Shown: positions 1 to 44,281 of the stretch, in pieces
How the letters are laid out: the number at the start of each line of letters is the position of its first letter
How positions within the stretch are numbered: position 1 is the first letter of the stretch
Sequence record: MW862804
Strand: one strand, 5' to 3'
Origin: Escherichia phage UAE_MI-01
DNA: 44,281 bases
Notes under the pieces: generated by a model
Database searches by the model: none
The model's input: the letters and a program-made list of their open reading frames with translations, nothing else
What the model was told of the DNA's origin: nothing
Program-made: the position numbers and the translations under genes

Positions 1-280
1 TCTGAAAGACTGGGCTTTGTCCCGCCTGTCCCGATCGGCTAAAACCCGCGGCAGCACTGGCGGGGACAGGGGTGCTGTCCCGCTTTGTCCCGCCTCATTC
101 TGTCCCGCTTTTTGTCCCGCTTAGTTTATGCAATAAAACTGCATAACTATTCACATTTTGGGGGCGGGACAGATCGGGACAGCACCCCTGTCCCGCTTTT
201 AATTTATGCAATTGTGGTGAGTAAATATGCAGTTTTAGAGGTGCGGGACAAAACGGGACGTCCCGCCTGTCCCGCTCCGT
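1..280. repeat. Noncoding module copy A (right part): 13-nt mini-hairpin TCTGAAAGACTGG, array of at least 12 GTCCCGC/GCGGGAC heptamers, palindrome TTATGCA-ataaaac-TGCATAA at 126..146
   Basis: Direct reading; heptamers at 19-25, 77-83, 87-93, 102-108, 114-120, 164-170, 190-196, 243-249, 260-266, 269-275; near-identical to 16698..16850. Confidence 0.85.
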
Positions 281-956
281 TATGCGGGGTTCTGCCGCGC
301 CATTTCATCCAGCGCAACGCGTTCCATTAGCTTGATATATTTAAACGCACGTTGCGCGTTTTCGATGCCGTGCATCTTAAATAGCCATTCCAGTACGCCG
401 TAGTCGATGCCGTATGCGCCGCCGAATCCGGTACGCCATTGCGTGGCGCAATCGGTGAAGACTGCGACTATCTTCGCATTGTCGGGCCATATCGCAACAG
501 GCGGACAAACATCTTCGGGGGCCGCACCCCATAAACTTGCGGCTAAATCTTCGGAGGGTGGCGGCGGGCCATAAAAGCGTCGCGCCGCCTCAATTAGTTT
601 TTTTCACGCAGGCCCATCAGTTCGAGATAGTACGACGTGTGGAACACACCGAACGCGCGAGGGTAGTTAACCACCAGGCGGCGGACGTTCTCCGCGTTAA
701 ATTCATCTGGCAGATTCCAGCCTTCAGCGACGTGCATGATGGCCTCGACCATAACGTTAAATCCTTCCGGGTCGTTGTCGTCGTATTCCGACAGCTTGCG
801 CTCCGTGTCCTGCATGGTCTGCGAAAACTCGTCGATCGGACGGTGGCGTACTGTAAACGTCATTTTTCCCGGTTCGTTCTCACCAGGGCGCGGGATCTCA
901 ATCGGCAGCTTAAAAGTCGGCTTAGGGTCAAGTGTAAAGAGTGGTGCTTTAGCCAT
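280..956 (-). CDS. Tail assembly chaperone, -1 frameshift-extended form (lambda G-T-like fusion)
   Basis: Slippery heptamer A_AAA_AAC (minus strand, plus 597..603) two codons before the G stop; the -1 frame stays open for about 105 further codons to TAA at 280..282; position between major tail protein and TMP. Confidence 0.6.
594..956 (-). CDS. Tail assembly chaperone (lambda gpG-like), short form
   Basis: ATG at 956 with GGAGAA RBS just after a terminator hairpin; acidic small protein directly downstream of major tail protein gene. Confidence 0.6.
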   Translation of the reverse strand: MAKAPLFTLDPKPTFKLPIEIPRPGENEPGKMTFTVRHRPIDEFSQTMQDTERKLSEYDDNDPEGFNVMVEAIMHVAEGWNLPDEFNAENVRRLVVNYPRAFGVFHTSYYLELMGLREKN

Positions 957-960
957 TGTA

Positions 961-984
961 GTATTCTCCAATAAAAAGGGGCCG
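961..984 (-). terminator. Rho-independent terminator/attenuator between major tail protein and chaperone genes
   Basis: Minus-strand hairpin GGGGCCAGCACGGCCCC followed by TTTTTAT. Confidence 0.6.
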
Positions 985-1024
985 TGCTGGCCCCATATTA
1001 TCACTCGCTATTTAAGCGACCAAA

Positions 1025-10109: not shown

Positions 10110-11495
10110 TTAGTAGAAGTCTACAGTAGGAACAGCGGCGATTGGACGAATCACAGGGAACAGGTGCGCAATAGGGTATCCCGCTGCGTCATTCATGTGG
10201 TCCACTCCTGCAGTTTTATCCGGCTCGCCTTTCTTAAGGTCGTACACCTGCTGTTCCAGACATTTCGCTAGTGTAGGGCATTTATCCAGGTTGACAAAAT
10301 ACTGGCGCACGCCCTTCGAGTTGCACATCATCGTATTCATCGCGATCAATCGGTCTTTCACAGGTGGGTTAACGCTGTCATATTCCACCTCGAAGCCAGC
10401 GTCTTCCAGTTGTGCGATATCGGACGACGACGCGTTGACCGTCTTGCGGGATTTGCCGCTGCTGTCCGGGTAAACGACAACACGACCGGCAGCACAATGA
10501 TCGGGGTAGCGCTCCTCGATCGCTTCAATCATAGCCGGGGTATCAAACAGGTCCACTAATTCATCCACGGCGTGAATCTCGTCGCGGAACTCCTTGTTCT
10601 CGGTGGTACGCTGCCGTCTTACATACACGACCGCCGCCATTTTCGTGACGTTAAAGTCCATACCGATAATCAGCGTATCTTCCGGTTGTACTTCTTCGGT
10701 GCTGGCGTTCTCCTCGCGATTGAACATCTTGTACACCGCGCCCGACGTAAGGTTAACAAACAGGCCGTTCAGGTACGCGTCGATCAGGTTAGCCGGGTAC
10801 TGACTGCGCAGCGTGTCGATAAAGTCTGCCGGTAAATGGTGGTTGTCTGTGGTCTTCGCCCGGATCAGGCGCTTTTGGCTATCCTTCTCCACCTCGAAAA
10901 TTTGGTACATCGCCCGGTAGCCTTCAGGCGTGGATACTATGACGAACTGGCGGACGAAGCCCGCACGCAGACGACCGAGCAATTTGTGATACGCCGCCAG
11001 CGCAACGTCTTGCTTCGTGGTGTCGAACTCGTCGGCAACAATCCACGCGGCGTTGACCCCGATCAGGCGAGTATAATTCTCCATTGATTCACAGATAACG
11101 CGAGTCCATTTGCCTTTCACCAGCACATTATAGATCTTGTCCTGCTTATTGAACTTCCACCGGAAGCCAGCCTCGTCAAACGCCTTTTCCAATTCCGGGT
11201 ACATGATCTTGACCAGGAGGGGAATAGTCGGCTCCGTCACAATGCCATCATGACCGGGGTTTAGTGTGAGAAGCTGGATTACCTTACGCGCAGCGACCCA
11301 CGACTTTCCGCCCCCGAAGCCGGAACACAGGCCGAGGATTTTAGTCTTCGTGTCGCGTAGTAGTTCGACCTGGTGCGGTAGGCAATCAGGCTGGTAAAGA
11401 CGCACCGCCTGCGCAACGCGTGTAGGGCGTGGCGGTCGGTTGCGCTTTGCGATCGCGCGTTCCAGTGCGCGGTGCTCTGCCGCATAGTTACGCAT
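10110..11495 (-). CDS. Terminase large subunit
   Basis: 461 aa; P-loop-like GFGGGKS near N-terminus; follows TerS-like gene with overlapping stop/start. Confidence 0.8.
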   Translation of the reverse strand: MRNYAAEHRALERAIAKRNRPPRPTRVAQAVRLYQPDCLPHQVELLRDTKTKILGLCSGFGGGKSWVAARKVIQLLTLNPGHDGIVTEPTIPLLVKIMYPELEKAFDEAGFRWKFNKQDKIYNVLVKGKWTRVICESMENYTRLIGVNAAWIVADEFDTTKQDVALAAYHKLLGRLRAGFVRQFVIVSTPEGYRAMYQIFEVEKDSQKRLIRAKTTDNHHLPADFIDTLRSQYPANLIDAYLNGLFVNLTSGAVYKMFNREENASTEEVQPEDTLIIGMDFNVTKMAAVVYVRRQRTTENKEFRDEIHAVDELVDLFDTPAMIEAIEERYPDHCAAGRVVVYPDSSGKSRKTVNASSSDIAQLEDAGFEVEYDSVNPPVKDRLIAMNTMMCNSKGVRQYFVNLDKCPTLAKCLEQQVYDLKKGEPDKTAGVDHMNDAAGYPIAHLFPVIRPIAAVPTVDFY

Positions 11496-12046
11496 TATTC
11501 GCCCTGGCCTTTGCCGGTAGGTTCCACTACGACGTCGCCGTTATCATCGTCGTCGTCATCCAGTGGGATATCGTCGCGGACTCCGTGGTTGGCTTTAAGC
11601 AGGAACGTAGCGAAGCCCGCCGCGATGGTTACGCCGCCAGCTTCCATCAGGAAAGTTTTCTGCAATTCCATAGCGTCCGCCATCGCCTCGGCGAACTCCT
11701 CATGTGCGCGCGCCCAGCGGTACAGGCAGGCAACGCCTACGCCAATTTCTGCGGCAAATCGGCCGAAGGTTGGCATTTTATTGCGCGGTATTACCTGCGC
11801 GGCCCCCTTATCAGAGTAGTTGACCTGCCAGGCTACGGCATCGGCGAAATAACGACGAAGCTGATCACAATACACAGTGCGGTAGTCGGTAGGGCGTCCG
11901 CATTTCCCGCCTTTACGGCGCTTGCCGTATTCGATCTCAGGTCCGAGATTGGTATGTTCGGTTTGCTCGCCTGGTTTACGGCGCGGGGTAACTGCGACTC
12001 GCCCGTCCAGTTTGGCGCGTCGGCCCTTAACTTTGATTTCTGCCAT
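11495..12046 (-). CDS. Terminase small subunit (putative)
   Basis: ATG 12046; basic N-terminus, HTH-like segment (FGRFAAEIGVGVACLYRWA), acidic tail; directly upstream of TerL. Confidence 0.55.
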   Translation of the reverse strand: MAEIKVKGRRAKLDGRVAVTPRRKPGEQTEHTNLGPEIEYGKRRKGGKCGRPTDYRTVYCDQLRRYFADAVAWQVNYSDKGAAQVIPRNKMPTFGRFAAEIGVGVACLYRWARAHEEFAEAMADAMELQKTFLMEAGGVTIAAGFATFLLKANHGVRDDIPLDDDDDDNGDVVVEPTGKGQGE

Positions 12047-12176
12047 GATATAAGCCCTTTTGTGCATATGCGCCGACCATCGGCAACATAGGAGACGGCC
12101 CTGCCATCTAACGGGGATTATAACAGGCACAAAAAAGCCCACCAAATCGGCAGGCTGGGGTGGTTACAGCGCTGGG

Positions 12177-16443: not shown

Positions 16444-16659
16444 CGTTCAGTCCTCTTGTTGGTGTGCAACCAAAATAGCAGGGTGCCAGGGTGAATGCAA
16501 CCAATATTAATCACGCGTATGAAAAAGTTGATCGCTATCTGCTGTGACTGCAAACTGCATTTCTCACCCTCCATTCTGCAACTCGCATTGGTTGCCTAGT
16601 TCATCGACGACCGCAATCCGCATCATGCTGCCGTGCGTTATGCAATCCTGGATTTTATG

Positions 16660-16850
16660 CAGTCTCAGACGAGGGGGGTGACAGACCCCCCGTCTAGTCT
16701 GAAAGACTGGGGTTTGTCCCGCTTGTCCCGCCCCCCCCCAGGCCGCGTCATCCGTGGGTGGGACGGGGTGCTGTCCCGCTTTGTCCCGCCCCTGGTCTGT
16801 CCCGCTTTTTGTCCCGCTTAGTTTATGCAGTTTTATTGCATAACTATGCA
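16660..16850. repeat. Noncoding module copy B: hairpin, mini-hairpin, GTCCCGC heptamer array (6-7 copies), C9 homopolymer, palindrome TTATGCA-gttttat-TGCATAA at 16823..16843
   Basis: Direct reading; about 85-90% identical to the junction copy over the conserved core. Confidence 0.85.
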
Positions 16851-16902
16851 CTATATTCACACTACACGGCAACCAATGCGACCGCCTAAAAGCCCATAAA
16901 AT

Positions 16903-16983: not shown

Positions 16984-19242
16984 TTTTAAATCGTCATCGG
17001 TCGCTGAAAGCGTGATAGGGATATCCGATTTGATGACCAAATTAGACGACCCATAGATGGCCCCGGTGTGCGGATCGGTATAGAAACCTATCACTCCGCG
17101 CTCCACCATATCGTCGATTGCCTTCGTCGAAGTGCCACCTTTTGCGAGTCCCGCCTGGCGGACGATTGCCGATTTACTGAATCCGGTATGGTCCGGGTTA
17201 TCTTCCATCAGTTTTTCCAGTGCCGCATAAAGCACTTTCTCTTTTTCATTGCGCGGTCCGGCGGTGTTCTCTTCCTTAACTGCGGCCTTGCCTGCTGCCT
17301 TCGCCTGTTCGATGGCGAACGGTGCCAGGGCAACCGGTACAAGATACAGCGTCTCATCGCGCGGGGTGGATGCAATCGGCTTGACGTCCCAACCGGCAAC
17401 CACATCTCCGAAGTCTGGCCCGGTGCTGGTGGACTGGTGTGCCTCGAACGCTTCTGACTTGCGGAGATCCACCTTAACTTTGCACTTGAGCAGGACGAAG
17501 CCGCGCGGCGCTTGCTTGATGCCGTTACGTGACTTTTCGTGATACAGGTTCAATTGTCCGGGCTGGTTGTCGTCCGGCTGTTCCAGGAAGAAAGCGGAAT
17601 CGACAGCACCATGCAGCGCGCCGGACCCGCGTGGGGTTCTGCTGCCGTTTGCACCTTTCGCCGGGTGGTGAATGACGCCCGCACTGCCACCTGTGTTTTC
17701 CGCGATGGCCTTCAGAGCTTTGACCACTTCGCCCATATCGCTGGCGTTGTTCTCGTCGAACGGTTTAGCATCGGCGGACCGCAACGCAACCGTCTGGTTG
17801 AGTGAGTCGAACGCCACCAGGCCAACCGGCTCGCCGTTAGCGGTGCGGTTGATAAAGCTGATAACTTCACGCAAGCCAGATTTGCTGGTGATATCCCAGC
17901 CGCGGGATTGCAGATCGATAATGTGCAGCTTGTCCAGGTCGTGCTCGTATTTAATCTGCAATGCTTCTTTACGCTGGTTGGAGGCTTCACCACCTTCCGC
18001 GTCGAAATAGAAGCAATGAGACTGGACGACCTTCGCACCGCCGAACGGGATCCCTGCGGCAACCGCGCCCATTTGGCCCAGCACATAGAAAGACTTACCG
18101 ATATTCGACTCACCCGCCATGTACCAGGTCGATTTAAAGTTAATCAACCCCTCGATAATCGGGTCGTGCTTACTGAACAGCGCGACCGGCTCGTTATCCA
18201 GATCCGCATCGGTGCACACGCCGTATTCTTCGCCGTCGCCAACCGCATCAACAATATGTTCGTATAAGGATTCGACTTCCTCGTCGTCCAGCCCCGGAAG
18301 GATGGCGGCGATTTGCTTGCGCGACATGTTGTGTGGCTCGACGTTCAGGTGGTCCGGGATCCCGATAAGACGCAGCGCCAGGTGCTGGTGTCTGTTCAGT
18401 TCCGAGCAACACTCGTTGCCGGTGTGCATACACTTGAAACGGATCTCGCCATCCTTGACCATAATGGCGGTGGACCCTTCGCCGCTGTGCAGATGTTCGT
18501 TCGGGCACGGCACTTCATAACCGCGACCGGAAGATAACTCCTCGAATCCTGCCTGGAAGCACCAGTCCAGAATGCCGTCTGCCACTGCGTCGTCGCCCTG
18601 GGTCAGTTCGCGGCGGACTTCCTCTTTCTCAACTCCCAGCTTGTCCGCCAGGCGGAGCAGACGACGGACGCGGGCGCGCTTGCCATAGTGGCATTTAATA
18701 ACAGACTGCTGGTGTGGCAGGTACATCAGGCGGTTTGTGTCTTTCGTGCAGTCGTCGAAGTCCACATCTGACAGGCCCAGTTGGTGTAATAGCGCATACT
18801 GGACACGGCCCAGGTCTTCAGCCGGTACAGGCTTGTCAGTGAGTACCAGGAATCGAGCGCAACGCGTGCCGCCTTTCAGTGGGTGACGGTCGCCGGTTGT
18901 GGTGTGGAAGACGTGCTCCAGCCCCGCGTCAGTGAACGCCTTACGGCAACGGCGTAAAGTGCGGGTGTCGGTGCGGTCAATATCGAAGAACAGGATCGAG
19001 CGGTCCACCGCACTGGTCTTACGACGCAATCCGTCACTGGTATACGCCACGATGCCGTCGGCCTTACGCTTGCGGCGCGCATACTCGGCTTTATCTTCTG
19101 TCTTGTTGATATGCACCGAGGAGATTTCTTTCGCATCTTTGATAAATTCGAAAAATTCATCGGTGGTCATCTGGAAGTTTTCCGCCCTGGCTTTTTCGCC
19201 TTTTTTAGCGGGTCTTGTTACAGCGAATTTAATTAAGCTCAT
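16978..19242 (-). CDS. Bifunctional primase-polymerase / P-loop (RecA/DnaB-like) replicative NTPase
   Basis: 754 aa; N-terminal FFDIDR-type primase-polymerase motif, Cys/His zinc-binding cluster, Walker A GESNIGKS in C-terminal half. Confidence 0.7.
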   Translation of the reverse strand: MSLIKFAVTRPAKKGEKARAENFQMTTDEFFEFIKDAKEISSVHINKTEDKAEYARRKRKADGIVAYTSDGLRRKTSAVDRSILFFDIDRTDTRTLRRCRKAFTDAGLEHVFHTTTGDRHPLKGGTRCARFLVLTDKPVPAEDLGRVQYALLHQLGLSDVDFDDCTKDTNRLMYLPHQQSVIKCHYGKRARVRRLLRLADKLGVEKEEVRRELTQGDDAVADGILDWCFQAGFEELSSGRGYEVPCPNEHLHSGEGSTAIMVKDGEIRFKCMHTGNECCSELNRHQHLALRLIGIPDHLNVEPHNMSRKQIAAILPGLDDEEVESLYEHIVDAVGDGEEYGVCTDADLDNEPVALFSKHDPIIEGLINFKSTWYMAGESNIGKSFYVLGQMGAVAAGIPFGGAKVVQSHCFYFDAEGGEASNQRKEALQIKYEHDLDKLHIIDLQSRGWDITSKSGLREVISFINRTANGEPVGLVAFDSLNQTVALRSADAKPFDENNASDMGEVVKALKAIAENTGGSAGVIHHPAKGANGSRTPRGSGALHGAVDSAFFLEQPDDNQPGQLNLYHEKSRNGIKQAPRGFVLLKCKVKVDLRKSEAFEAHQSTSTGPDFGDVVAGWDVKPIASTPRDETLYLVPVALAPFAIEQAKAAGKAAVKEENTAGPRNEKEKVLYAALEKLMEDNPDHTGFSKSAIVRQAGLAKGGTSTKAIDDMVERGVIGFYTDPHTGAIYGSSNLVIKSDIPITLSATDDDLKD

Positions 19243-19252
19243 TGCCGTGGCC

Positions 19253-19582
19253 TTACTTAGAAGTTTTATTATTGCGTACCCAGGAGCGCACTGTGCTCTG
19301 ATTAATCCCAGTCAACTCGGCAATCATCGCCCATGATTTGCCCTCGGCGCGCAAACGGATAACCTGCTTTTTGTATTCTTCCATTTCTTCATTGTGCTTC
19401 TGCAGCTTGCTTGCTGCCGTGCCGTTGAGCAATTCCAGCCTGGCGCGTAATTCTTTTTCTACACTGCGCAGACGTTCAATCTCAAATAGCACCGCCCCCA
19501 CGGCATCGGTATACGCCCATGACCGGCTTGTCTCACTGCAAACAGTCTTCGTTAACATTTCGATTGCGTCGTTGATATTCAT
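19253..19582 (-). CDS. HTH DNA-binding regulator (putative)
   Basis: 109 aa; coiled-coil middle, C-terminal HTH-like segment (KSWAMIAELTGINQSTVRSWVRN); palindrome GTTGGT-taatga-ACCAAC 14 nt upstream of its start. Confidence 0.5.
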   Translation of the reverse strand: MNINDAIEMLTKTVCSETSRSWAYTDAVGAVLFEIERLRSVEKELRARLELLNGTAASKLQKHNEEMEEYKKQVIRLRAEGKSWAMIAELTGINQSTVRSWVRNNKTSK

Positions 19583-19759
19583 TGCTCTGCCCTCAGTTGG
19601 TTAATGACCAACGAAACTACACCTAAAACCGAAAGGTGTCAAATCCTTTGGATATTGAAACGGGCGCGCACGCGTGTAATAATAATTCCCGTCTCATTGT
19701 CTCTTATTGGTTAGCGCCGTCGCATTTTGCCTCGGCGCTTTTTTTTTTGAAATTAGTTG

Positions 19760-19788
19760 TTGACTCCCTTCTGCAACCAATCTAATAT
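19760..19788 (+). promoter_or_regulatory. Sigma70-like early promoter (TTGACT-17 bp-TAATAT) with CAACCAAT motif in the spacer and a T10 tract upstream
   Basis: Direct reading of the -35/-10 hexamers and spacing. Confidence 0.55.
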
Positions 19789-19984
19789 TCACTCCGTCGA
19801 CAGGATGCAGGACGCAAACTGGAGAGGGGCAACGCAGGGGCCGGATCGAAGTGTCAGGATTCCCAACCGTGATTATATAACCAGGTCCACTACCCGAAAG
19901 GGAGAACGCGTAACCTGGCAATATGTTAAGGCCACCGACGAAGTTTACTGCCGACACCTAAACTTAACCAATCGGAGATACACC

Positions 19985-20527
19985 ATGTTTGAACAAATCG
20001 TAAACCTGATCACTCGCGGCGTAGTAGCACTGGAAATCATCGCTAAACATTATGAAACCGTTGGCGCTGCCGTAGACCCAAAAGCAAACGGCACTGCTAA
20101 GAAAGGCAAGGCCAAGCCAGATACTGAAGTCGAAGACGACGACGATCAGGACGAAGTCGAAGATACGCCTAAAACGAAAAAAGGCGCGGCAAAAGAAACC
20201 AAGTCTAAAGGTAAGGCCAAAAAAGAAGTCGTAGAAGATGACGACGACGATGACGCCGATGACGTGAAGCCAGCGAAGGGTAAAAAAGCTCCGGCGAAAG
20301 GCAAAGGCAAGAAAGATGCCGATCCGCTGGCAGAGATGCGCGACGAGATCAAACAGTATGCCGCTATTATCGCTGGTGGTGACGACGACGATGCCAACGA
20401 CGAATTCGACGACCTGCTGGAAGCGTTCGAGATCAAATCAATCGCCAAGCTGGAAGATGACGACGTCGAAGACTTCCACAAAGACCTGAAAGAAATCGTC
20501 GAAACCTATTTCGAATTGGAAGATTAA
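19985..20527 (+). CDS. Highly charged early protein with alternating Lys-rich and Asp/Glu-rich blocks
   Basis: ATG 19985 with GGAGAT RBS; first gene of the plus-strand operon; followed by terminator. Confidence 0.55.
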   Translation: MFEQIVNLITRGVVALEIIAKHYETVGAAVDPKANGTAKKGKAKPDTEVEDDDDQDEVEDTPKTKKGAAKETKSKGKAKKEVVEDDDDDDADDVKPAKGKKAPAKGKGKKDADPLAEMRDEIKQYAAIIAGGDDDDANDEFDDLLEAFEIKSIAKLEDDDVEDFHKDLKEIVETYFELED

Positions 20528-22680: not shown

Positions 22681-22770
22681 CCGCTTAGGCGCAACCAAGT
22701 AGATTAGCAACCAAGCCGAACGGGGTGGCTTCCAATAACCCCGATACATGTGAAAATGAGGAATTGGAAA

Positions 22771-23556
22771 ATGGCTAAAGTCAACCTGAAAAATGTGCGC
22801 GTATGTTTCCTGAAAATTTGGGAACGTGATACCCCTAAACAGGACGGACAAAAACCGGCATACCGCGCCGTGATTCTTCTTGATAAAGAAGATCCGCAGG
22901 TGGACAAAGTGGAAGCGGCAGCGCGCGCAGTGCTCACCGACAAGCTGAAATCCGAGAAGAATGCCGATAAGTGGATGGACCGCCACTACGCCCAGGATTC
23001 TAAGGAATGTGCAGTTCGCGACGGCGACGAGCGCGATGAAGTAACCGAAGAATTCGAAGGAATGTTGTACATCAACGCTAAATCGTTCAAACAGCCAAAC
23101 ATCCAAACGTCACTCGGCGAGAAGCAGACCGAACAGGGTCTGACCGTAGAAGGCGACGAAATCGAAGGCCAGGAGATCTACTCCGGTTGTTATTGCAATG
23201 TGTCACTGGATATTTGGGCGTGGAACAACACCAACGGCAAGGGACTCGGTGCTGGACTGCTGGGTTTACGCTTCCGTGATGACGGTGAAGCCTTCGGCGG
23301 TGGCGGATCTTCGTGCTCCGATGAAGACCTGGACAACGACGACGAAGATGAAAGCCCGCGCAAGTCCAAAAAGTCAAAACGTCGTGATGACGATGACGAA
23401 GACGACAAGCCGCGCAAGTCCAAAAAGTCCAAGCGCCGCGATGACGACGATGATGACGAAGACGAGAAACCTCGTAAACGTCGTAAGCCACGCGATGACG
23501 AAGATGATGAGGACGACGACGAAGACGAAGCACCACGCAAACGTCGCCGCCGTTAA
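22771..23556 (+). CDS. ssDNA-binding protein-like (DUF2815-type, putative) with C-terminal basic/acidic repeats
   Basis: ATG 22771 with GAGGAA RBS; synteny between DUF2800-like nuclease and PolA; C-terminus built from 54-63-nt tandem DNA repeats. Confidence 0.4.
   Translation: MAKVNLKNVRVCFLKIWERDTPKQDGQKPAYRAVILLDKEDPQVDKVEAAARAVLTDKLKSEKNADKWMDRHYAQDSKECAVRDGDERDEVTEEFEGMLYINAKSFKQPNIQTSLGEKQTEQGLTVEGDEIEGQEIYSGCYCNVSLDIWAWNNTNGKGLGAGLLGLRFRDDGEAFGGGGSSCSDEDLDNDDEDESPRKSKKSKRRDDDDEDDKPRKSKKSKRRDDDDDDEDEKPRKRRKPRDDEDDEDDDEDEAPRKRRRR
23356..23556 (+). repeat. Imperfect tandem coding repeats (54, 60 and 63 nt) encoding PRKSKKSKRRDDDD(E/D)n units
   Basis: Direct reading. Confidence 0.8.
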
Positions 23557-41534: not shown

Positions 41535-44177
41535 TCATCGTTTATAAAGTACACCACCCGGTTTCGTTGCCTTCACGATCTCGGACTTCACCGCCTCGGT
41601 GATCTGCTTGCCGAACGCCTGCGCGGTACGGGGGTCCGGCCCGCTGACACTGGTATCCGTTTTACCGGTACCCGTGTAAACGTTAGTCGTCACGACCATA
41701 CCCCCGCCTGCGCCAGACGCGGCAACGCCCAGTTTCCCGTCCGGCCCGCGCTTCAGTGGCATGATGGCCTCGGGACCAGCCTCGCCCATCAATCCTGCGC
41801 CCTTAGCGAACGCCTGGACGCCATAACTGAAAAAGGTAGGCTGGCTTACCACTTTCCCCGAATAGGCCGCGAGATTGCCTCCTGCGTACGCTCCGCCGTC
41901 CGCATTCTTGGTGAGGCCCGAGAAGATAGCGCCGAACAATCCGTTTTTGCCGCCGTCGCCACCAAAAGCGCTAACGATCGACTTGAAAGCCTGCGAGGTA
42001 GCCAGCTTGATTAATTCGCTCAGGATGGACTTAACCATATCCTTTGCGTTCAGCTTGCCCGTCTCGAAAAACTCGTTCATCGTGTCTTGCATAGCGCTGA
42101 ACGTGAATTTTGTGAGCGTCGTCATCTGCGTATATCCGTTACCCATATCATCCACACTATCCTTAAGCCCGCGGCTGAAGCCATCCCATAGCGAGGCGTT
42201 AGCTCCGGTCTGTGCTTCCTGCACTTCGCGCAGCTTAGACACCGCCTTGTCTATATCGGTATCGTTAGCGCCAACCCGCTTCAGGCGATCAATTAGCTGC
42301 AATTCTTCGCGCAGGTTTGCCGCTTCGCGAGTGGAAAGCGCATACCCCGCGGCGGTGGCTTTTAGTTCGGCGTTCTGGTTCTTAACGAAGGCATCGATCT
42401 GCGCGTGCGCCTTAACCTGCTGCTCTTTCGCATCCAGCAATTTGGCTTCTTCGACGATCTGCTCGCGGACTTCCTTCACGCGCCCGAACTCGACTAATTG
42501 CTGCTTTTCTGCTGCCGTTAGCGCTCTTTCTTTGCTCGCAGCGATTAACTGCTCATTGTCGGCGATCAGCTTGTTTAAGGCCGCTTGAGCGCGTTGCGTG
42601 CGGGTCTGCGTAGACGCGTTGGCTTCGATCTGCTTGCCGGATTCTCGAAGCTGGGCCAGTTCGCTCCGTGCGACTTCCAGCATTTTCATACCGGCATCCA
42701 CGCGAACAGCCGCGGCCTTCTTCGGGGCGGGATCTTTGTAGCGCTCGTTTACCTGCTTCACCGCCTCGGCAAGCTCTTTCTCGTCAATAACGCCACGCTT
42801 ATTCAGCAAATTGAGACGGGCGATCTCGTCGGCGCGCTTCTTCGCGTTAGTTGCGTACTCCTTCTCGAACGCGGCGCGGTCGCGAGCGGTGCGGTTGGCC
42901 TCCTCGTTCGCCTTTGCGGATTCGTCCGCGGCACGGGCGTTGTCGCGCTCCGCACGGTTACGCAGGGTGAGCGACGCCACTACTTTCTCCTGGGCGACCA
43001 GTTCGCTGTAAAGCATGTTAATACGCGCTTTCTGCGCTTCAGTCATTACCCCACCGGCAGCGTTTACCGCTTTCATCTCGGCATAGTAAGCCGTGGTTAG
43101 TCGCTGCAATGACTCACGCGCTTTCATCTCAGATTCATTGGAGGACTGCGCGCGGCCCACATCCAGGATGGCGTCCCACATTGATTTGGCTGCCGATGTG
43201 ACGCCGTTCATCGACCGCTCAAGCGTACCCATGTTGGACTTGATTTCATTGGTCATGCTGGTGAACGACGCAGCGGCTGTTTTGTTAGCCAACGCAACTG
43301 CGTCTGTCTCACGACCCGCATCAACGAGCGACTGTACCTGCTGGATCTGCGCTTCGTTTACGACGTGATACTTATCCGCCAGCGCACGCAGTCCGCCAAC
43401 GGGGTCGGTTGACAGCTTCGCCACAGCCGCTACCACATCCTCGATCGGCTGGCTGGACACCTTCGCGAAGTCATTCACTACCTTAGCCAATGCGCCGAAG
43501 TCACCACCCGCTTTCACACCTGCCGCCGCCAGCGCCTGGATTGTGTCACGCGTCTTGCGAAATGACCCGCCCATGCGCTCGGCGTTCTCGGACAGCACCA
43601 GGATCTGGTTAGCGGTGAGGCCGGAGATATTACCAGACAGCGCCAGCGTCTTGTTAAGCGCTGCCACCTGGTTCTCTGCTCGGGACGTAATTGCCACGCC
43701 CACGCCTAAAGTCGCCGTTACAGCGGTGAGGCCGATCCCTACGGGGCCGAGGAAGCCCGCAACATACCGAAGCGTGTTACCCAGTCCGCCAAATGCGCCG
43801 GTTAGCTGTGGTAACTGCTGAAGCATGACGCGGTGCACCGGCATACCCATCTCAAGCGTAACCGCGATATCCTGTAACTGGAATGCGGCGTTACGCGAGG
43901 CAAAGCCCAAGTTTTTTGTCGACATGCCTAATCGGCTGGCGAGTCGCTCCTGTTTCGTCATGCCGTCGGCGGCGCGCTGCGATTCAGTCGCTAACTTTTC
44001 CATTCCGCCCGCGGCGTCGCCAGTAACCTTTTTCGACTTGCCGAGTGTGTCGTTTAATTTTTTTACTTTCTGTTCTGTGTTCTCGGATTTCTGCGCAAAT
44101 GTGTCCAGCACAGTATTAGCCGTTTTAATTTGCGCGACGTCCGCCTTGAGCGTGATGCCCGCTGCCTGATCTGCCAT
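41535..44177 (-). CDS. Tail tape measure protein
   Basis: 880 aa, Ala/Gln/Lys-rich predicted coiled coil with Gly-rich hydrophobic segments near N-terminus; follows chaperone genes across the window junction. Confidence 0.85.
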   Translation of the reverse strand: MADQAAGITLKADVAQIKTANTVLDTFAQKSENTEQKVKKLNDTLGKSKKVTGDAAGGMEKLATESQRAADGMTKQERLASRLGMSTKNLGFASRNAAFQLQDIAVTLEMGMPVHRVMLQQLPQLTGAFGGLGNTLRYVAGFLGPVGIGLTAVTATLGVGVAITSRAENQVAALNKTLALSGNISGLTANQILVLSENAERMGGSFRKTRDTIQALAAAGVKAGGDFGALAKVVNDFAKVSSQPIEDVVAAVAKLSTDPVGGLRALADKYHVVNEAQIQQVQSLVDAGRETDAVALANKTAAASFTSMTNEIKSNMGTLERSMNGVTSAAKSMWDAILDVGRAQSSNESEMKARESLQRLTTAYYAEMKAVNAAGGVMTEAQKARINMLYSELVAQEKVVASLTLRNRAERDNARAADESAKANEEANRTARDRAAFEKEYATNAKKRADEIARLNLLNKRGVIDEKELAEAVKQVNERYKDPAPKKAAAVRVDAGMKMLEVARSELAQLRESGKQIEANASTQTRTQRAQAALNKLIADNEQLIAASKERALTAAEKQQLVEFGRVKEVREQIVEEAKLLDAKEQQVKAHAQIDAFVKNQNAELKATAAGYALSTREAANLREELQLIDRLKRVGANDTDIDKAVSKLREVQEAQTGANASLWDGFSRGLKDSVDDMGNGYTQMTTLTKFTFSAMQDTMNEFFETGKLNAKDMVKSILSELIKLATSQAFKSIVSAFGGDGGKNGLFGAIFSGLTKNADGGAYAGGNLAAYSGKVVSQPTFFSYGVQAFAKGAGLMGEAGPEAIMPLKRGPDGKLGVAASGAGGGMVVTTNVYTGTGKTDTSVSGPDPRTAQAFGKQITEAVKSEIVKATKPGGVLYKR

Positions 44178-44245
44178 TATGCAGTCCCCCTTTTTATGCA
44201 GTTGCCGTCGGTTATTGTATCAGCGAATTTAAAACAAACCTTATT

Positions 44246-44281
44246 CAGTCTCAGACGAGGGGGGCCATTGACCCCGTCTAG
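44246..44281. repeat. Noncoding module copy A (left part): conserved hairpin CAGTCTCAGACGAGGGGGG-loop-CCCCGTCTAG, continuous with window position 1
   Basis: Matches 16660..16697 (same stem, different loop); window end plus window start reproduces the contiguous internal copy. Confidence 0.85.

Follow-up and report, generated by a model that had tools for sequence, protein, structure and literature searches.

The sequence of Escherichia phage UAE_MI-01 (MW862804), analysed over its full length of 44,281 bp and hereafter called the window, is a complete, circularly permuted genome of the genus Dhillonvirus (HK578/SO-1-like siphoviruses of Escherichia coli). Its two ends belong to one noncoding element, region A (1..280 and 44178..44281), located between the genes encoding the tail assembly chaperone G/GT and the tape measure protein (TMP). 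Region A probably serves in replication as an element of the iteron type, being either a second origin or a site that acts in cis together with a related element, region B (16655..16862). Copies of the word TGTCCCGC are arranged in pairs spaced by a helical turn, which face each other across blocks of 71-75 % AT; region B is a collinear half-copy directly after the primase-helicase gene; and the same word and layout mark the 3' ends of primase-helicase genes or the interior of DnaD/O-like genes in many unrelated phages.

The gene order of the window is the same as in the annotated relatives PaulFeyerabend, SO-1, HK578 and B2, with the structural genes on the minus strand; over the first 6 kb, 157 phage records are 80-95 % identical to it. 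Related genomes carry the two ends of the window as one contiguous stretch, so that the noncoding gap between G/GT and TMP amounts to 280 + 104 = 384 bp on the circle. The initial annotation, made from the sequence alone, had described about 380 bp between a GT stop at 280 and a TMP start at 44177 on the circular map. The size of the gap and the TMP start were borne out, the latter by a gene with TMP_2 and Tape_meas_lam_C domains, but the stop codon of GT occupies 281-283. The slippery sequence GAAAAAAAC (597..605, minus strand) is found directly before the stop codon of G, and the -1 frame past G encodes a T part of 107 amino acids with a DUF1799 domain, which ends at this TAA codon. Judged by its sequence and position, GAAAAAAAC is a classic -1 frameshift site leading into the T domain. 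In the annotation of most relatives, G and T appear as separate or spurious small open reading frames (ORFs).

The order from G/GT to TMP is otherwise among the most rigid gene orders in siphoviruses. The window has the frameshift of the contiguous lambda-like module, but TMP does not follow directly after GT, the distance being 384 bp compared with 5 bp in Pantoea phage MED16, the nearest outgroup with a homologous GT. The comparison of G-GT-TMP spacing among relatives, which had been proposed earlier, agreed with the earlier view that the tail operon is split in an unusual way, since the gap holds a conserved, non-random noncoding element that is kept in 157 of 157 Dhillonvirus records (79-98 % identity). 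The split is real, and the cause first proposed for it probably wrong.

The heptamer GTCCCGC occurs exactly ten times in positions 1..280 (eight copies on the plus and two on the minus strand), where about 0.06 would be expected per 280 bp; the expectation was taken from shuffles, in which the whole 44-kb window averages 9.5 exact heptamers on both strands. The same positions contain 13 GTCCCG cores and one degenerate copy, GGGGACA. The earlier count of at least 12 heptamers is correct for the hexamer core and slightly too high for the exact heptamer. The true repeat word is the 8-mer TGTCCCGC, with nine exact copies in region A. Most heptamers form direct pairs 9-12 bp apart (18/27, 76/86, 101/113, 164/174, 243/253 and 259/268), so that a short word recurs in region A at intervals of about one helical turn, as expected of an iteron-type origin. 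Heptamer pairs also stand head-to-head, as in GCGGGACAAAACGGGAC and GTCCCGCCTGTCCCGC, and flank two AT-rich blocks. The perfect palindrome GGGACGTCCC, placed at 256-265 in the initial annotation, does exist, at 255-264, and forms the centre of the 33-nt palindrome of four heptamers.

Both AT-rich blocks stand out from a genome with a mean of 45 % AT, in which only 0.35 % of the 40-mers reach 70 % AT, and they provide the adjacent stretch fit as an unwinding element that belongs to iteron-type origins. Each contains the pattern TTTATGCA-N15-TATGCA. A near-DnaA box with one mismatch, CTATTCACA (147..155), is located at the edge of the first block, and another, ATATTCACA (16853..16861), has the same relative position in region B; no exact DnaA box was found in the window genome. 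The word (T)TATGCA is enriched, ten of its 18 copies being in regions A and B (positions 126, 140, 204, 16638, 16655, 16823, 16837, 44177 and 44194, and nine elsewhere). Two TATGCA copies straddle the ribosome-binding site and start codon of TMP, which suggests that the word may be a third bound word or a translational operator. The TMP-proximal part of region A also carries an extended -10-like sequence, TGATACAAT (minus strand, 44214-44222), and the left half of an imperfect hairpin, CAGTCTCAGACGAGGGGGG-loop-CCCCGTCTAGTCTGAAAGACTG, with a conserved stem and a variable loop, which is also present in region B, in Edwardsiella phage eiAU and in metagenomic relatives. An Rfam scan of the window gave no RNA family matches.

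Region B, the second cluster, was missed in the initial annotation. It contains six exact heptamers (16715-16817), starts 116 bp past the stop codon of the primase-helicase gene, and is collinear with the left arm of region A (44241..44281 followed by 1..154). Identities are 72-81 % between A and B, 84-90 % between A regions and 73-86 % between B regions, and this comparison identifies the left arm of region A as an old paralogue of region B. In the relative LM40P1, regions A and B have shared derived states, suggesting gene conversion or exchange between them. The two regions are 16.7 and 27.6 kb apart on the circle, and both clusters are kept in SO-1, HK578, PaulFeyerabend and CHD5UKE2. The GenBank record of SO-1 (2009) lists "region A" and "region B" as mutually similar repeat regions, so the element had already been seen. 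A literature search found no paper assigning a function to the regions, and a search on the repeat word itself gave no relevant paper. An inversion between A and B, hinted at by the paper on phage B2, was rejected, as the B2 record has the standard gene order. No homology to region B was found in the E. coli chromosomes and plasmids of the ecoli_genomes collection, which thus gave no evidence that a satellite has borrowed the origin.

In an alignment of ten genomes, no variation is seen in the GTCCCG cores, the hairpin stem, ATTGTATCA and the extended -10 TGATACAAT before TMP. The spacers and the loop of the hairpin do vary, and an extra heptamer pair has been gained in some of the genomes. 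Fourteen Dhillonvirus contigs from IMG/VR have 11-14 cores each. By this pattern of conservation, region A is non-random and under selection. Several annotators of related genomes have called tiny "hypothetical proteins" inside it.

Outside the genus, the place after the primase-helicase gene is occupied by lineage-specific repeats. Salmonella phage SE1 has an analogue of region B only, with five copies of TCTCCCC; a metagenomic relative with a 68 % identical helicase retains GCGGGAC and the hairpin, and one with a 48 % identical helicase (L020) has TCGCAA/TTGCGA repeats instead. Phage eiAU, which belongs to a different genus, has gaps at both places, one of 1.1 kb from GT to TMP and one of 0.9 kb past the helicase-primase gene, which have about 60 nt with TCGCCCCG repeats in common, and a related hairpin precedes its TMP. 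Region A is absent from MED16 and SE1. On this distribution, region A would be an addition common to Dhillonvirus and Eiauvirus. No noncoding array was found after the helicase gene in Kagunavirus and Jerseyvirus relatives.

The reading of the heptamers as origin iterons is based chiefly on the clustering of the word at replication genes in unrelated phages. IMG/VR was scanned for TGTCCCGC-N1-4-TGTCCCG, with an array defined as at least six cores per 400 bp, and about 40 unrelated non-Dhillonvirus contigs with a GC content from 35 to 69 % were found to contain arrays. In about 34 of these, the array is at a primase-helicase, primase or initiator gene and next to AT-rich blocks; the word therefore marks sites linked to replication genes in other replicons, as an origin iteron would. 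In about 19 contigs, the array touches or runs into a primase-helicase gene (Toprim_3+AAA_25, AAA_25, Prim-Pol+AAA_25 or VapE/DUF5906) at its 3' end; in three it lies downstream of a primase-related protein, and in 12 within a DnaD-like, O-like or "replication initiation" gene. One contig (L059) has six 11-bp tandem CGGGACAAnnn repeats followed by a 40-nt AT run just before dnaB. Rhizobium phage 16-3 (record positions 56249-56650) has about 15 TGTCACGC/GCGTGACA repeats right after the primase gene p101, and its metagenomic relatives L024, L034, L037 and L097 have TGTCCCGC in the same layout, a switch of one base in the word. Phage 16-3 is a cultured relative of one array group, and its word is a variant of the kind expected for origin-initiator pairs.

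If region A acts in replication, the heptamers would be bound cooperatively by a phage protein, either through the predicted winged helix of the primase-helicase or through a 109-amino-acid protein with a C-terminal helix-turn-helix (HTH). The facing arrays, once bound, would melt the AT-rich blocks, the RepA-like helicase would be loaded in both directions, and the first primers would be made by the N-terminal AEP primase. Regions A and B might fire independently or communicate by protein-mediated looping, like ori and crr of phage P4. With the tail operon interrupted by the element, TMP would be served by a separate extended -10 promoter-like site, TGATACAAT, just downstream.

The primase-helicase is a candidate for both the iteron binder and the origin helicase. 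Its AEP-type DxD/H residues are invariant, and its core resembles RSF1010 RepA (1g8y, TMt 0.64). The best fold matches of the predicted winged helix were MarR/MepR-DNA, Rio2 wH, TFE-alpha and ArsR, with a weak Ribosomal_S25 match. The HTH protein, found only in Dhillonvirus and in relatives at the 68 % identity level, the lineages using GCGGGAC, is an alternative candidate binder. In HK578, mutants escaping the OLD defence have changes in the helicase-primase gene gp46 and in the gp45-46 promoter; this defence reportedly recognises hairpins formed by origin iterons (bioRxiv 10.64898/2026.07.10.737580). The escape mutants provide a genetic hint for an origin.

Satellite phage P4 is among the closest known systems. 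Its ori and crr are reportedly two clusters of short iterons kilobases apart, one of them near the replication gene, and the iteron of its alpha protein is TGTTCACC. The window likewise has two clusters of one word kilobases apart (1-280 and 16715-16817), and a primase, a helicase and a predicted C-terminal winged helix in one polypeptide (predicted order AEP, zinc motif, AAA_25, winged helix). The domain order of alpha is primase, hexameric helicase and C-terminal winged helix (PMC2777425). However, alpha combines a DnaG/Toprim primase with an SF3 helicase, unlike the AEP-like primase and RepA/DnaB-like AAA_25 helicase of the window, and no homology to alpha was found for the Dhillonvirus primase-helicase, which had AAA_25 as its only Pfam match and RepA/RecA-like sequence and fold matches in the PDB. 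The second site is also placed differently, inside the virion tail operon of a virulent 44-kb phage, and its role in cis is putative. By analogy, the system may resemble P4 in how it works, and it is not a member of the P4 family.

Tandem initiator repeats followed by an AT-rich stretch are also the arrangement of ori-lambda within the O gene, which contigs of the L059 type reproduce exactly, upstream of dnaB; the Dhillonvirus arrays, by contrast, are intergenic, consist of a 7-8-mer rather than a 19-bp palindrome, and accompany a self-contained primase-helicase instead of O/P-DnaB. Phage SPP1 is said to have two distant initiator-binding repeat regions, oriL and oriR, one in the replication region and one among the late genes. 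It is similar in having two such regions in the genome of one virulent siphovirus, but relies on a DnaB-type helicase with a loader and on G38P as a dedicated origin-binding protein, and its repeats are unrelated. In the pri-rep-ori modules of PICI/SaPI satellites the origin follows directly after the primase/helicase genes, two iteron sets flank an AT-rich melting region, and the iteron words differ between allelic Rep variants (PMC6092414). The flanking iteron sets, their place and the variable words are features in common with the phages studied here; the satellites have a single origin, whereas here the half-site B holds the canonical place and the fuller, two-armed site A is displaced by 16.7 kb. 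The arrangement of the archaeal plasmid pRN1, in which a gene for a small DNA-binding protein (orf56) precedes a prim-pol/helicase/winged-helix gene (orf904) and the essential origin is in noncoding DNA just downstream of orf904 (PMC4234260, PMC2777425), is similar in order, but it has an SF3 helicase, a single origin and a host of another domain; homology was compared at the Pfam level only.

Several points weigh against a role of region A in replication. The case consists of association and architecture, from which binding and initiation at either site are inferred. Iteron-type origins are physically linked to an initiator or helicase gene, and this applies to region B and not to region A, which is 16.7 kb from the primase-helicase gene and has no adjacent replication gene. 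The GC skew tracks the direction of transcription only and gives no origin signal, being uninformative because it follows gene orientation. Comparison by hhalign did not detect a relationship between the winged helix and the C-terminal domains of other primase-helicases with arrays (probability 1.8 %), which makes a word shared among different initiators hard to explain. Expression signals are interleaved with the array (the invariant hairpin, the extended -10 and the TATGCA boxes at the TMP start), and contig ends cluster in region A, which an origin does not explain.

The expression signals lead to an alternative considered unlikely, namely that regions A and B control late transcription, each standing before one block of late genes. 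Region B would serve the lysis, terminase, head and tail-tube genes and region A the TMP, tail-tip and fibre genes; the heptamers would bind a phage factor, e.g. the HTH protein, which is sigma-region-4-like, to activate, insulate or terminate transcription, and the hairpin would be a terminator or an RNA-processing site. Each module is indeed followed by a long series of same-strand late genes, and the extended -10 before TMP is invariant. Canonical terminators are found between GT and the array in two relatives (L153 and LM40P1), and terminators are annotated here in HK578 and WF5505. The HTH protein and the heptamer word occur together in Dhillonvirus and the 68 %-identity relative, and outgroups with Cro-type HTH proteins have other repeats. 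Simple consensus scans of A and B, however, detected neither a sigma-70 promoter nor a terminator on the coding strand, and the distance from heptamer to nearest plausible promoter is about 60 bp in A compared with about 250 bp in B. Control of late transcription also leaves unexplained why the word clusters at replication genes in other phages, even inside initiator genes, and why arrays face each other around AT-rich blocks. The extended -10, recognised by eye, and the terminators of the relatives suggest that an operon boundary also falls in region A. In the initial annotation, the "regulatory or packaging element" was too vague and probably named the wrong process, as arrays elsewhere are at replication genes, although a transcriptional boundary may coexist with a replication element.

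That the phage does use repeated regulatory words, a further point for transcriptional control, is indicated by a separate operator-like 8-mer, GCAACCAA, with 19 copies compared with 2.0 ± 1.4 in shuffles. Many are intergenic and six are in region B (all positions: 5853, 5867, 15933, 16466, 16497, 16588, 16869, 16904, 16958, 19773, 22691, 22707, 26328, 29270, 29287, 31191, 31203, 34036 and 39498). Some copies are in or beside the spacer of sigma-70-like early promoters, e.g. TTGACT-N17-TAATAT at 19773. The box also occurs in eiAU, and the variants CAGCCAAC and CGGCCAAC in SE1 and L020; it looks like the operator of a putative regulator. The HTH protein was rejected as its binder across genera, since eiAU and SE1 have an unrelated Cro-type HTH protein, yet eiAU has the box.

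It is very unlikely that region A marks the ends of virion DNA within the tail operon, either as a pac-like site with imprecise terminase cuts or as cos. Breaks inside region A are seen in at least six independent records or contigs. In four, namely the window, CHD5UKE2, Kente and L149, the break is in the hairpin or next to it, 87-104 nt ahead of the TMP ATG; Maverick and the eiAU record (KF772233) also end in the gap. Known pac sites, such as those of P1 and SPP1, likewise consist of short repeats flanking the cut zone. However, a cos or pac site would be unique and in or next to the terminase genes, whereas the module is present twice per genome, TerS (11495..12145) is 11 kb away, TerS and TerL are of the headful P22/Sf6/T4 type, and the arrays of other phages adjoin replication rather than terminase genes. 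The CHD5UKE2 and Maverick contigs have terminal overlaps of 127 nt across the break, which means that reads cross the junction. The genomes assemble as circles, and the relative Opt-212 was called headful by PhageTerm (PMC9022532). The suggestion in the initial annotation that the physical genome ends fall inside the tail operon conflicts with the terminase type, the Opt-212 call, the overlaps and the second copy, and is not supported.

The breaks (in the window, L009, L011, L012, L149 and eiAU) are spread over 44246..44281 and 1..100, several being in the hairpin loop, and the overlaps are of the SPAdes type; their clustering is probably an assembler artefact at the G6/C6 hairpin and the A/B repeats. 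Assemblies break repeatedly in region A, and such breaks could be taken for genome termini. The only "cos" claim, a published 5' end of Dhillonvirus EE09, ATCTTAAGGG, was dismissed, as it is absent from the window and the EE09 record (OR756193) starts in the early methyltransferase region; it disagrees with the headful result for Opt-212 and probably arose as an artefact of PhageTerm. Finally, that region A has no function of its own, being a duplicate of B or a selfish or recombination-prone repeat that settled at an intergenic position where it is tolerated, is scarcely credible: the collinearity with B, the shared states in LM40P1 and the absence from MED16 and SE1 would fit, but the element is in every Dhillonvirus record and all IMG/VR relatives with invariant cores and drifting spacers, it exceeds B in the number of heptamers and in the completeness of its facing architecture, and a different genus, eiAU, has an analogous GT-TMP gap with repeats of its own.

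A wider proposal is tentative and more doubtful than the role of region A in replication. The TGTCNCG word and its layout (helical-turn pairs, facing arrays, AT blocks and terminal GC hairpin) might represent a widespread, so far undescribed origin module in phages of enterobacteria, rhizobia, roseobacters and low-GC hosts, used by non-homologous initiators (AEP/Toprim primase-helicases, VapE/SF3 and DnaD/O-like proteins). In Dhillonviruses and Eiauviruses it would have been split or duplicated into two cooperating sites, with the fuller site in the tail operon physically coupling the initiation of replication to late transcription or TMP expression. That one iteron word recurs next to initiator families without relationship to each other poses the question of how origin specificity is encoded and exchanged.

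Dhillonviruses are common coliphages in therapy and biocontrol and are represented in the BASEL collection, yet no mapped replication origin for them was found in the literature. Should regions A and B form the replicator, they would be targets for engineering, e.g. of minimal replicons or replication-defective phages, and would help to explain the action of defences that sense origin hairpins, including the HK578 OLD escape mutants at gp45-46. The retention of a replication element within a tail-assembly operon throughout a genus would then be an unusual genome architecture. The coordinates of the features are collected in Table 1.

Table 1 Features of the window related to regions A and B and their candidate binding proteins
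Feature	Position	Strand	Description
Region A, main body	1..280		13 GTCCCG/CGGGAC cores, consensus TGTCCCGC; 10-genome alignment
32-nt inverted repeat arms	63-94 and 163-194		94 % complementary; bracket AT-rich block 1
AT-rich block 1	121..160		75 % AT; candidate DNA-unwinding element; TTATGCA-N6-TGCATAA
AT-rich block 2	197..240		73 % AT; pattern TTTATGCA-N15-TATGCA
Four-heptamer palindrome, GCGGGACAAAACGGGAC and GTCCCGCCTGTCCCGC	243..275		Directly after GT stop codon; weak "terminator" in HK578 and WF5505 annotation
Region A, TMP-proximal 104 bp	44178..44281		Two TATGCA boxes, extended -10-like TGATACAAT, left half of hairpin
Imperfect hairpin, CAGTCTCAGACGAGGGGGG-loop-CCCCGTCTAGTCTGAAAGACTG	44246..44281, continuing into 1-12		Fold z = -2.7
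Region B	16655..16862		Second module copy, about 200 nt: hairpin, 6 exact heptamers, AT block
G/GT tail assembly chaperone	281..1004	minus	G 594..1004, Phage_TAC_4; -1 frameshift; T part with TAA at 281-283
TMP, tape measure protein	41535..44177	minus	TMP_2 and Tape_meas_lam_C domains; start at 44177
Primase-helicase, 754 amino acids	16978..19242	minus	AEP-type DxD/H motif, Cys/His zinc motif, RepA-like AAA_25
Winged helix, C-terminus of primase-helicase (residues ~660-740)	17023..17265	minus	Predicted; pLDDT 80-92
109-amino-acid protein, C-terminal HTH	19253..19582	minus	HTH_23 / Sigma70_r4_2-like; first gene of primase-helicase operon

Repeats of another kind, located within coding sequence, were also observed in the window. 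Asp/Glu-rich repeats with KPRK-type spacers are encoded at 20102..20421, in the first rightward early gene (19757..20527), and similar Asp/Glu-rich repeats at 23320..23540 form the C-terminal tail of a Gp2.5/Enc34-like single-stranded DNA-binding protein (gene at 22750..23556).

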